64,000 bases of DNA, taken from NCBI RefSeq assembly GCF_003334815.1, contig NZ_QOWO01000023.1; one strand, written 5' to 3'. Of this stretch, positions 4,145 through 4,603 are shown one piece after another. A program made the translations under genes and the position numbers. Under the pieces are notes generated by a model. That model saw only the letters and a program-made list of their open reading frames with translations, was not told where the DNA came from and did not search any database. The DNA is from Escherichia coli. GTDB taxonomy: Bacteria; Pseudomonadota; Gammaproteobacteria; Enterobacterales; Enterobacteriaceae. The first letter of the stretch is position 1, and each line of letters opens with the position of its first letter.

Positions 4145-4603
4145 GTGTCTCAGCTTTGTCCCTGTGGTAGTGCTGTCGAGTATAGCCTATGTTGCCACCC
4201 TTATGTGTCTGGTGAAAAGGTTGCACCTGATCCAGAACATCTCATGCGTTCGCGTTACTGCGCTTTTGTGATGCAAGACGCAGATTATTTAATAAAGACC
4301 TGGCATCCCTCTTGTGGAGCAGCGGCGTTACGTGCCGAATTGATGGCCGGATTTGCGCATACTGAATGGTTGGGATTGACCGTATTTGAACATTGTTGGC
4401 AGGACGCCGACAATATCGGATTTGTCAGTTTTGTTGCTCGATTTACCGAAGGTGGTAAAACAGGTGCAATAATTGAACGTTCGCGATTTTTGAAAGAAAA
4501 CGGTCAATGGTACTATATTGACGGTACACGTCCGCAGTTTGGTCGCAACGATCCCTGCCCTTGTGGTTCAGGTAAAAAATTTAAAAAGTGCTGCGGCCAA
4601 TAA
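4145..4603 (+). CDS. ychJ: SEC-C motif protein YchJ (UPF0225)
   Basis: 152 aa from GTG at 4145; CPCGS motif at N-terminus and [13 protein letters not shown] at C-terminus. Confidence 0.85.

Follow-up and report, generated by a model that had tools for sequence, protein, structure and literature searches.

What is the role of a small protein that carries a SecA-type cysteine knuckle at each of its ends? This question is raised by ychJ of Escherichia coli, found in a 64,000-nucleotide stretch of contig NZ_QOWO01000023.1 (hereafter the window, to which all positions refer). A reading made from the sequence alone had described two SecA-C-terminus-like, Cys-rich motifs flanking a central domain, and had called the function of this arrangement unassigned. 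The latter statement is outdated, as Wang et al. 2026 (Nat Commun, PMC13377102) describe the Salmonella ortholog as an H2O2/ROS sensor that represses the adjacent gene rssB.

Two published studies bear directly on YchJ. Cranford-Smith et al. 2020 (10.1101/613315) reported that the C-terminal domain of E. coli YchJ is 73% identical to SecA residues 878-899 and that a second CXCXnCC motif, with conserved Ser and aromatic residues, lies at the N terminus; the SecB-binding residues are kept in the C-terminal metal-binding domain (MBD) and absent from the N-terminal one. The purified E. coli protein contained 1.30 +/- 0.17 Zn per protein and traces of Fe, a result that had already answered the metal-content check proposed with the sequence-only reading. 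YchJ was yellow, a colour associated with Fe, it aggregated after EDTA treatment, and large-scale screens showed no Sec phenotype for it. The second study (PMC13377102) concerns Salmonella, where a ychJ deletion results in H2O2 sensitivity and attenuation in macrophages, and where RssB rises about 10-fold and RpoS falls in the deletion strain under H2O2. The deletion phenotype, which complementation reversed only in part, shows epistasis with an rssB deletion. EMSA, BLI and ChIP-qPCR placed YchJ at the rssB promoter, on a 24-bp palindrome at -35 to -57, with a KD of 8-64 µM by EMSA (40 mM KCl) and about 1 µM by BLI, and a plasmid-borne rssBp-lacZ reporter was repressed by YchJ in trans. H2O2 produced YchJ dimers that were reversed by DTT, and activity was lost in C149S/C150S, Lys144/145/147/148 and R112/R114 mutants. 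In the crystal, Zn is held by C5, C7, C16 and C17 in a structural site packed on the NTF2 domain.

The two-knuckle layout is therefore not new: Pfam, two papers and four PDB entries already contain it. It makes an ordinary finding, and the interest that remains is secondary. What is added here is the distribution of the two knuckles across the family (80 of 80 loci against 35 of 80), a set of conserved residues (R35, R37, E111 and W122) that the published model leaves unexplained, the restricted linkage to rssAB, and a promoter that runs antisense inside ychJ.

The ychJ gene and its start codon

4145..4603, + strand: ychJ coding sequence, from the open reading frame and its translation; GTG start, TAA stop, 152 aa plus stop
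4133..4137, + strand: Shine-Dalgarno sequence GGGAG, read from the sequence, 7 nt before the ychJ GTG

Translation of the plus strand from 4145 to 4603 exactly matches the 152-aa product and the N- and C-terminal sequences that had been quoted for it. RefSeq gives identical coordinates, with GTG 4145 as start, under the name 'YchJ family protein'. Membership of the UPF0225/YchJ family follows from the NCBIfam equivalog NF002449, which YchJ matches with 293.9 bits (cut-off 141) over residues 1-152 of 152. The region is carried by 5,423 of 5,426 complete E. coli genomes, and 4145..4603 is an ordinary E. coli ychJ.

The stretch CAGGGAGATTA at the Shine-Dalgarno site has an identical copy in Salmonella, where the Shine-Dalgarno sequence and the GTG are both kept. 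An upstream start at TTG 4124 was rejected, as a 1-nt indel just 5' of the GTG in Salmonella breaks the frame of the extension. A true start further downstream, which would place the N-terminal motif outside the protein and was the doubt raised with the sequence-only reading, has nothing in its favour that we could find; some assemblies call shorter products (e.g., P0123 and P0138). Such a start is refuted to the point of negligible probability by the conserved Shine-Dalgarno sequence and GTG, the frame broken upstream in Salmonella, the Pfam match of the motif, its invariance across phyla (80 of 80 species loci) and its presence with bound Zn in crystal structures (PMC13377102).

Two cysteine knuckles and an NTF2-like domain

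4145..4201, + strand: N-terminal SEC-C-type Cys4 knuckle, residues 1-19, ligands C5, C7, C16 and C17 (Pfam PF02810, i-E 5.7e-6)
4229..4525, + strand: NTF2-like middle domain (YchJ_M-like), residues 29-127 (Pfam PF17775, i-E 4.5e-31, model positions 1-99 of 99)
4544..4597, + strand: C-terminal SecA-like MBD, residues 134-151, with C138, C140, C149, C150 and K144, K145, K147, K148 (Pfam PF02810, i-E 1e-10)

The Pfam assignments bear out the layout of two SEC-C-type motifs (residues 1-19 and 134-151) around a central domain (29-127). Both motifs share the spacing C-x-C-x8-C-C (residues 5-17 and 138-150), and both show the features of SEC-C, namely C-x-C-x8-C-[H/C] with Ser at +4 and an aromatic residue at +8. 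The basic SecB-contact segment GKK[Y/F]K is found in the C-terminal motif only (K144, K145, K147 and K148), while the N-terminal motif has A10, V11, S14 and L15 instead. Residues 132-151 match the SecA MBD peptides 1SX0, 1TM6 and 1OZB with E-values of 1e-6 to 5e-6, whereas the N-terminal motif reaches only about 0.3 against SecA. The description of the motifs as SecA-C-terminus-like can thus be kept for the C-terminal one; its N-terminal counterpart is a diverged SEC-C knuckle that lacks the basic residues.

The likeness of the last 20 residues of YchJ to the SecA MBD includes the spacing, the Ser, the aromatic and the basic residues. However, the last ligand in YchJ is Cys rather than His, and the MBD is joined to an NTF2-like domain and not to an ATPase. 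Besides SecA and YchJ, one more E. coli protein ends in a SecA-like MBD, namely YecA/AscA (UPF0149 plus a C-terminal MBD), with 77% identity over 22 residues; Zn and Fe co-purify with it. Unlike YchJ, YecA has one MBD rather than two, and its N-terminal domain is unrelated. YecA is a reported chaperone whose MBD binds SecB and ribosomes, and such MBDs have been called a portable targeting module (AscA preprint).

Chance can be set aside as the origin of the paired motifs. When the residues of YchJ itself (11 Cys and 5 His) were shuffled 2,000,000 times, the motif CxCx8C[CH] occurred once in 7,013 of the shuffles and two or more times in 3. In all six frames of the 64-kb window together, the motif is matched three times, twice by YchJ itself. 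Both knuckles are genuine, translated and conserved. A search of YchJ with Pfam revealed SEC-C and the NTF2-like domain only and no recognisable DNA-binding domain.

Structural data lead to the same layout. The structure prediction that had been suggested as a check was run with AF2 from 108 diverse homologues and gave a model with a mean pLDDT of 96.6 and a pTM of 0.90, the C-terminal knuckle included; Foldseek places it on 9VXG with a TM of 0.97 and an rmsd of 0.7 Å. Solved structures also exist: 9L6B and 9VXG for the Salmonella ortholog, 2JQ5 for RPA3114 of Rhodopseudomonas palustris and 2I9W for PSYC_2064 of Psychrobacter arcticus. The last two are structural-genomics entries with no assigned function; both are family members (E-values of 2e-18 for RPA3114 and 5e-18 for PSYC_2064, Foldseek probability 1.0) and share the knuckle and NTF2 core with YchJ; 2JQ5 (128 aa) differs in having no C-terminal MBD. 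Outside the family, the closest folds found by Foldseek are limonene epoxide hydrolase, ketosteroid isomerase and a CaMKII-association-like domain. For the NTF2-like enzymes (limonene-1,2-epoxide hydrolase and ketosteroid isomerase), the shared alpha+beta cone fold is matched with E-values of 1e-4 to 1e-5 and a TM of about 0.5, but identity is only about 16%.

Distribution of the two knuckles in the family

The best 120 homologous proteins from a first search came from Enterobacteriaceae only. A HMMER scan of 1.84 billion 50%-identity representatives gave 10,604 matches at E<=1e-3, from which the best 150, 136 of them full-length, were taken as a sample that is biased towards two-motif proteins. 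Both strict motifs are present in 128 of these 136 full-length representatives. Among these top representatives CC always closes the N-terminal motif, in which no basic residue is conserved. Of 134 C-terminal motifs, 133 have Ser at position 5, 121 have Gly at position 6, 116 have an aromatic residue (F or Y) at position 9, and all have Lys at positions 8 and 10; 103 of them end in CC and 31 in CH, so that position 150 is C or H. Across 108 aligned representatives, C5, C7, C16, C17, C138, C140, S142, K145, K147 and C149 are invariant, and G143 is nearly so.

Because this sample favours two-motif proteins, a species scan was added, in which one genome per GTDB species was searched and 80 ychJ-homologous loci were kept. 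These span several classes of Pseudomonadota as well as Desulfobacterota, Bdellovibrionota, Campylobacterota, Spirochaetes, Verrucomicrobiota, Actinomycetota, Bacteroidota and Cyanobacteria. Every one of the 80 loci encodes the N-terminal knuckle (its loop is standard in 76 and longer in 4), and its four Cys are found in 79 of 79 aligned loci, whereas only 35 of 80 encode the C-terminal MBD. No actinobacterial, betaproteobacterial, verrucomicrobial, Bacteroidota or cyanobacterial member of this sample has the MBD. The universal unit of the family is therefore the N-terminal knuckle with the NTF2 cone, to which the SecA-like C-terminal knuckle is an accessory. In locus L088, foreign DNA replaces the 5' end of ychJ; a megablast search of this DNA against phages gave no match.

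Conservation within the core points to particular residues. In the 79 aligned species loci, C5, C7, C16, C17, L33, R35, R37, E111 and W122 are invariant in both sub-families, and F115 is kept in 78. The alternation E111-x-S113-x-F115 suggests one conserved face of a beta-strand. The invariant R35, R37, E111 and W122 have no role in the published DNA-binding model, whose key residues are poorly conserved: Arg is found at the position of R112 in 24 of 79 homologues and at that of R114 in 43.

Gene neighbourhood

3127..4032, - strand: rssA (patatin-like phospholipase), from the open reading frame and RefSeq; divergent neighbour of ychJ and first gene of rssAB
2022..3035, - strand: rssB, from the open reading frame and RefSeq; reported target of YchJ (PMC13377102)
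4653-5495, + strand: purU, neighbour of ychJ

The window has the standard E. coli layout hns-galU-rssB-rssA><ychJ-purU-tyrTV, including the tRNA-Tyr genes. Five loci (L001-L005), from E. coli, Salmonella and enterobacterial-like sources, were the only ones in which rssB, rssA and purU were seen next to ychJ, and none of these genes was found within 6 kb of a ychJ homologue in non-enterobacterial loci (0 of 80). A 39%-identical relative (L007) has hns-galU-ychJ-purU without rssAB. To our knowledge, the RpoS/RssB pathway is restricted to some Proteobacteria, and repression of rssB cannot then be the ancestral function of the YchJ family. Regulation of rssB is probably an enterobacterial addition to an older function of the knuckle and NTF2 core.

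Could E. coli YchJ be a redox-sensing repressor of rssB?

By analogy with the Salmonella experiments, E. coli YchJ may be an H2O2-sensing repressor of rssB, a proposal whose chances we consider evenly balanced. The Salmonella Typhimurium protein (STM14_2121; 9L6B and 9VXG) is an ortholog, 77% identical to E. coli YchJ by Foldseek over the 130 residues of 9VXG; over its full length, the Salmonella cluster representative P0012 shares 80% identity. Gene length, GTG start and the hns-galU-rssB-rssA><ychJ-purU synteny do not differ between the two species. All eight motif Cys are shared between the two proteins, as are R112, R114, R134, K144, K145, K147 and K148, and every residue named by Wang et al. 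is found in E. coli YchJ (R112, R114, R134, C138, C140, K144, K145, K147, K148, C149 and C150). The sensor Cys, the basic DNA-contact residues and a nearby rssB are thus all in place in E. coli.

The mechanism, taken over from Salmonella, would run as follows. The N-terminal Cys4 knuckle is, as the crystal shows, a Zn site with a structural role, packed on the NTF2 domain. In E. coli as in Salmonella, H2O2 would oxidise C149 and C150 of the C-terminal knuckle to give a reversible dimer, its subunits joined by disulfides through C149. The paired Lys-rich C-terminal knuckles (K144, K145, K147 and K148), together with R114 and R134, would then bind DNA near the -35 region of rssB P2. The resulting repression of rssB would lower RssB, and RpoS would be stabilised and KatE and SodC would increase.

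Wang et al. treat the C-terminal cysteines as free thiols (PMC13377102), but the reduced C-terminal MBD appears to be a metal site (10.1101/613315), which argues for a metal-thiolate switch that loses its metal on oxidation. We infer that the C-terminal MBD is probably a switch of this kind. Hsp33 and RsrA are Cys4 zinc-thiolate redox switches in which oxidation frees the metal and alters oligomeric state or activity. As a lead only, an Hsp33/RsrA-type switch in YchJ would reconcile a metal-bound MBD (10.1101/613315) with disulfide formation (PMC13377102).

Several observations stand against this mechanism. The fold neighbours of YchJ are enzymes and ligand binders, and Pfam finds no DNA-binding domain in it. 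Sensing and DNA reading are both assigned to the C-terminal MBD, yet 45 of 80 species do not have it, and rssB adjoins ychJ only in the five loci given above. The poor conservation of R112 and R114, the invariant R35, R37, E111 and W122 for which the model has no role, the failure to find a strong 24-bp palindrome upstream of rssB, and the loss of rssAB P1 in a ychJ deletion (for the last two, see below) also count against it. The weak affinities, together with the use of a Lys-rich tail as the DNA-binding surface, make non-specific electrostatic binding possible. If the Salmonella ROS-sensor model holds in E. coli, it would add a transcriptional input to the control of RssB and RpoS, and it needs to be reconciled with a family core that lacks the proposed sensor and DNA-binding module.

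The rssB P2 promoter and a candidate operator

3114-3104, - strand: -10 element of rssB P2, sigma-S-type, TCTACACTTAA, placed from the published P2 start
3133..3148, no strand: inverted repeat GTTGGT-ACGC-ACCAAC, at -34 to -49 of rssB P2, from a palindrome scan; candidate for the published 24-bp palindrome
3129-3152: candidate operator 24-mer GTTGGTACGCACCAAC, better conserved in E. coli than in Salmonella

An E. coli promoter map puts the start of rssB P2 64 bp upstream of the rssB ATG (10.1101/2023.11.09.566509), which corresponds to about 3099 in the window. The interval from -35 to -57 then covers 3134-3156, at the 3' end of the rssA coding sequence. Here GTTGGT-ACGC-ACCAAC is a plausible candidate operator that would overlap the P2 -35 region, although its symmetry is at chance level. 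In a relaxed scan of all 24-mers in the intergenic and P2 region, none had more than 7 of 12 self-complementary pairs, a score that about 1.4% of random 24-mers reach by chance. A 24-mer scan of E. coli and Salmonella found no strong 24-bp palindrome upstream of rssB in the P2 region, and neither a repeat search of 2950-4200 nor a strict palindrome scan returned an inverted repeat. E. coli and Salmonella have different sequences in the candidate operator region, and the Salmonella copy of the GTTGGT-N4-ACCAAC repeat is less symmetric. The sole site with 9 of 12 pairs, TCACGCC-GT-GGCGTGA, is found in Salmonella, inside rssA and 314 bp upstream (L002 3208-3231), and is not conserved in E. coli.

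A possible older function of the conserved core

The distribution of the knuckles invites a second reading, compatible with rssB repression as the main explanation, in which the ancestral function of YchJ is small-molecule binding or catalysis by the N-terminal knuckle and the NTF2 pocket, and the effect on rssB is indirect or lineage-specific. We hold this tentatively, at well below an even chance. It would account for an N-terminal knuckle found in all 80 species loci, from Actinomycetota to several proteobacterial classes, for the invariance of L33, R35, R37, E111 and W122 in both sub-families (and of F115 in all but one locus), and for the beta-strand face suggested by E111, S113 and F115. 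It also fits the enzymes and the CaMKII-association-like domain that are the nearest non-family folds, and the absence of rssB, rssA and purU within 6 kb of ychJ in the 80 non-enterobacterial loci. However, the similarity to enzymes is modest (TM about 0.5 and 16% identity), and the conserved residues could be purely structural, for instance a buried salt bridge.

Possible docking to SecB or the ribosome

The C-terminal MBD could alternatively dock on SecB, the ribosome or both, as in SecA and YecA/AscA, which would give YchJ a co-translational or Sec-linked role and make DNA binding a by-product of its basic tail. The match of residues 132-151 to the SecA MBD peptides, which include the SecB-bound 1OZB, speaks for this, as do the invariance of S142, K145 and K147 (and near-invariance of G143) in the 108-sequence alignment, the retention of SecB-contact residues in the C-terminal and not the N-terminal MBD (10.1101/613315) and the binding of the YecA MBD to SecB and ribosomes (AscA preprint). 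This analogy is weakened by the large-scale screens, which gave no Sec phenotype (10.1101/613315), by the Salmonella phenotypes, which are epistatic with rssB (PMC13377102), and by the 45 of 80 family members that have no C-terminal MBD. We regard such docking as unlikely to be the main role of the domain.

The antisense rssAB P1 promoter inside ychJ

4100..4100 (approximate), + strand: ychJ transcription start, 45 nt before the GTG, inferred by converting the coordinates of PMC4447067
4179..4185, - strand: -10 element CTATACT of rssAB P1, sigma-S-type, read from the sequence; antisense in ychJ codons 12-14 (E12-Y13-S14)

The promoter map has consequences for deletions of ychJ. Counted back from codon 1, transcription of rssAB from P1 begins 1135 bp before rssB and 139 nt before rssA (10.1101/2023.11.09.566509), which maps to 4170-4171 on the minus strand of the window, 26 nt inside ychJ. 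Sigma-S ChIP-seq work (PMC4447067) validated transcription starts at MG1655 1288329 (rssA) and 1288400 (ychJ), 71 bp apart, with an E-sigma-S peak there. With ychJ starting at about 4100 and P1 at 4170-4171, the two transcripts overlap head-to-head by about 72 nt, an overlap that covers the ychJ 5'UTR, the Shine-Dalgarno sequence, the GTG and codons 1-9. The 18-nt block CAACATAGGCTATACTCG around the P1 -10 element is identical in Salmonella, while its flanks differ. A sigma-70 promoter and terminator scan of 3000-4700 gave counts equal to those of shuffles and missed these sigma-S-type promoters known from the literature.

As P1 lies inside the 5' end of ychJ, deletion of the whole gene would remove it, and this embedding, as a complication of deletion genetics, has not been reported before. 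It may confound deletion genetics at the ychJ/rssAB locus, and the published phenotype could in part be a cis effect, in which loss of the antisense P1 rewires rssAB transcription. The position of the P1 start and of the first ~26 nt of its transcript inside ychJ, the shared block around CTATACT and the partial complementation in trans (PMC13377102) are consistent with such an effect. Against it, the plasmid rssBp-lacZ reporter responds to YchJ in trans and the plasmid-borne point mutants used for complementation are not equally active (PMC13377102), and losing P1 alone predicts less RssB and not more. The reporter and point-mutant data support a real trans effect, so that the loss of P1 is a caveat to rssB repression and not a refutation of it; a contribution in cis to the published phenotype appears improbable.

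These strands can be combined, with the same reserve as for the older function of the core, into a view that is possible though doubtful: the knuckle and NTF2 core (R35, R37, E111 and W122) would be ligand-binding or catalytic, and the role in rssB control would be a late enterobacterial overlay through the accessory MBD, its apparent strength perhaps inflated by cis coupling to the antisense P1. As a separate observation, the P1 -10 element falls within the codons of the N-terminal knuckle.

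Promoters of the rssAB operon

The sigma-S-dependent promoter P1 of rssAB, placed from published positions (10.1101/2023.11.09.566509) converted to window coordinates, lies within ychJ, the 152-codon gene that is divergent from rssA and rssB.

Start ~4170-4171, minus strand: rssAB P1, sigma-S-dependent, within ychJ (region 4100-4210, both strands)
4185 to 4179, minus strand: P1 -10 element CTATACT, formed by ychJ codons 12-14
TSS ~3099, region 3099-3156, minus strand: rssB P2, with the TSS position taken from the literature

The primary transcripts of rssAB and ychJ overlap head to head by ~72 nt, and sequence comparison with Salmonella reveals an identical 18-nt block surrounding the P1 -10 element. 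The -10 element of P2, TCTACACTTAA, is near-consensus for sigma-S. At -34 to -49 of P2, overlapping the final rssA codons, is an inverted repeat (GTTGGT-ACGC-ACCAAC), which is statistically not distinctive but may possibly serve as an operator for YchJ, a protein reported as an rssB repressor in Salmonella (PMC13377102).

The ychJ locus in relatives

In an E. coli lineage represented by protein cluster P0013, which comprises 120 sequences, foreign DNA takes the place of the first ~28 ychJ codons, as seen in locus L088 (1-3090), where the junction corresponds to approximately window position 4226. Because the codons for the N-terminal knuckle are replaced in this lineage, rssAB P1 is replaced too. 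The foreign DNA encodes small ORFs, one of them HTH-like, and gave no match in a megablast search against a phage collection.

A more distant homologous locus, L007 (1346-4576), encodes a 39%-identical YchJ in the order hns-galU-ychJ-purU, with rssA-rssB missing between galU and ychJ; the linkage of ychJ to purU is therefore more lasting than its linkage to rssAB. In two longer homologues, P0201 (451 aa) and P0247 (340 aa), the full YchJ module forms the C-terminal portion, and these fusions might hint at a functional partner.

Other features of the window

In a six-frame translation of the window, the sole CxCx8C[CH] match besides the two in ychJ is a CxCx8CH at ~15754 (plus strand, frame 0). 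Downstream of purU, tRNA-Tyr(GTA) is encoded three times in tandem, the copies recurring every 294 bp.

5655-5739: tRNA-Tyr(GTA)
5949-6033: tRNA-Tyr(GTA)
6243-6327: tRNA-Tyr(GTA)

The RefSeq strain that served as the annotation reference, NZ_CP025865.1, has two tRNA-Tyr(GTA) genes at the same locus, followed by the RtT sRNA, and the difference of three versus two appears to reflect copy-number variation in the tyrT/tyrV repeat.
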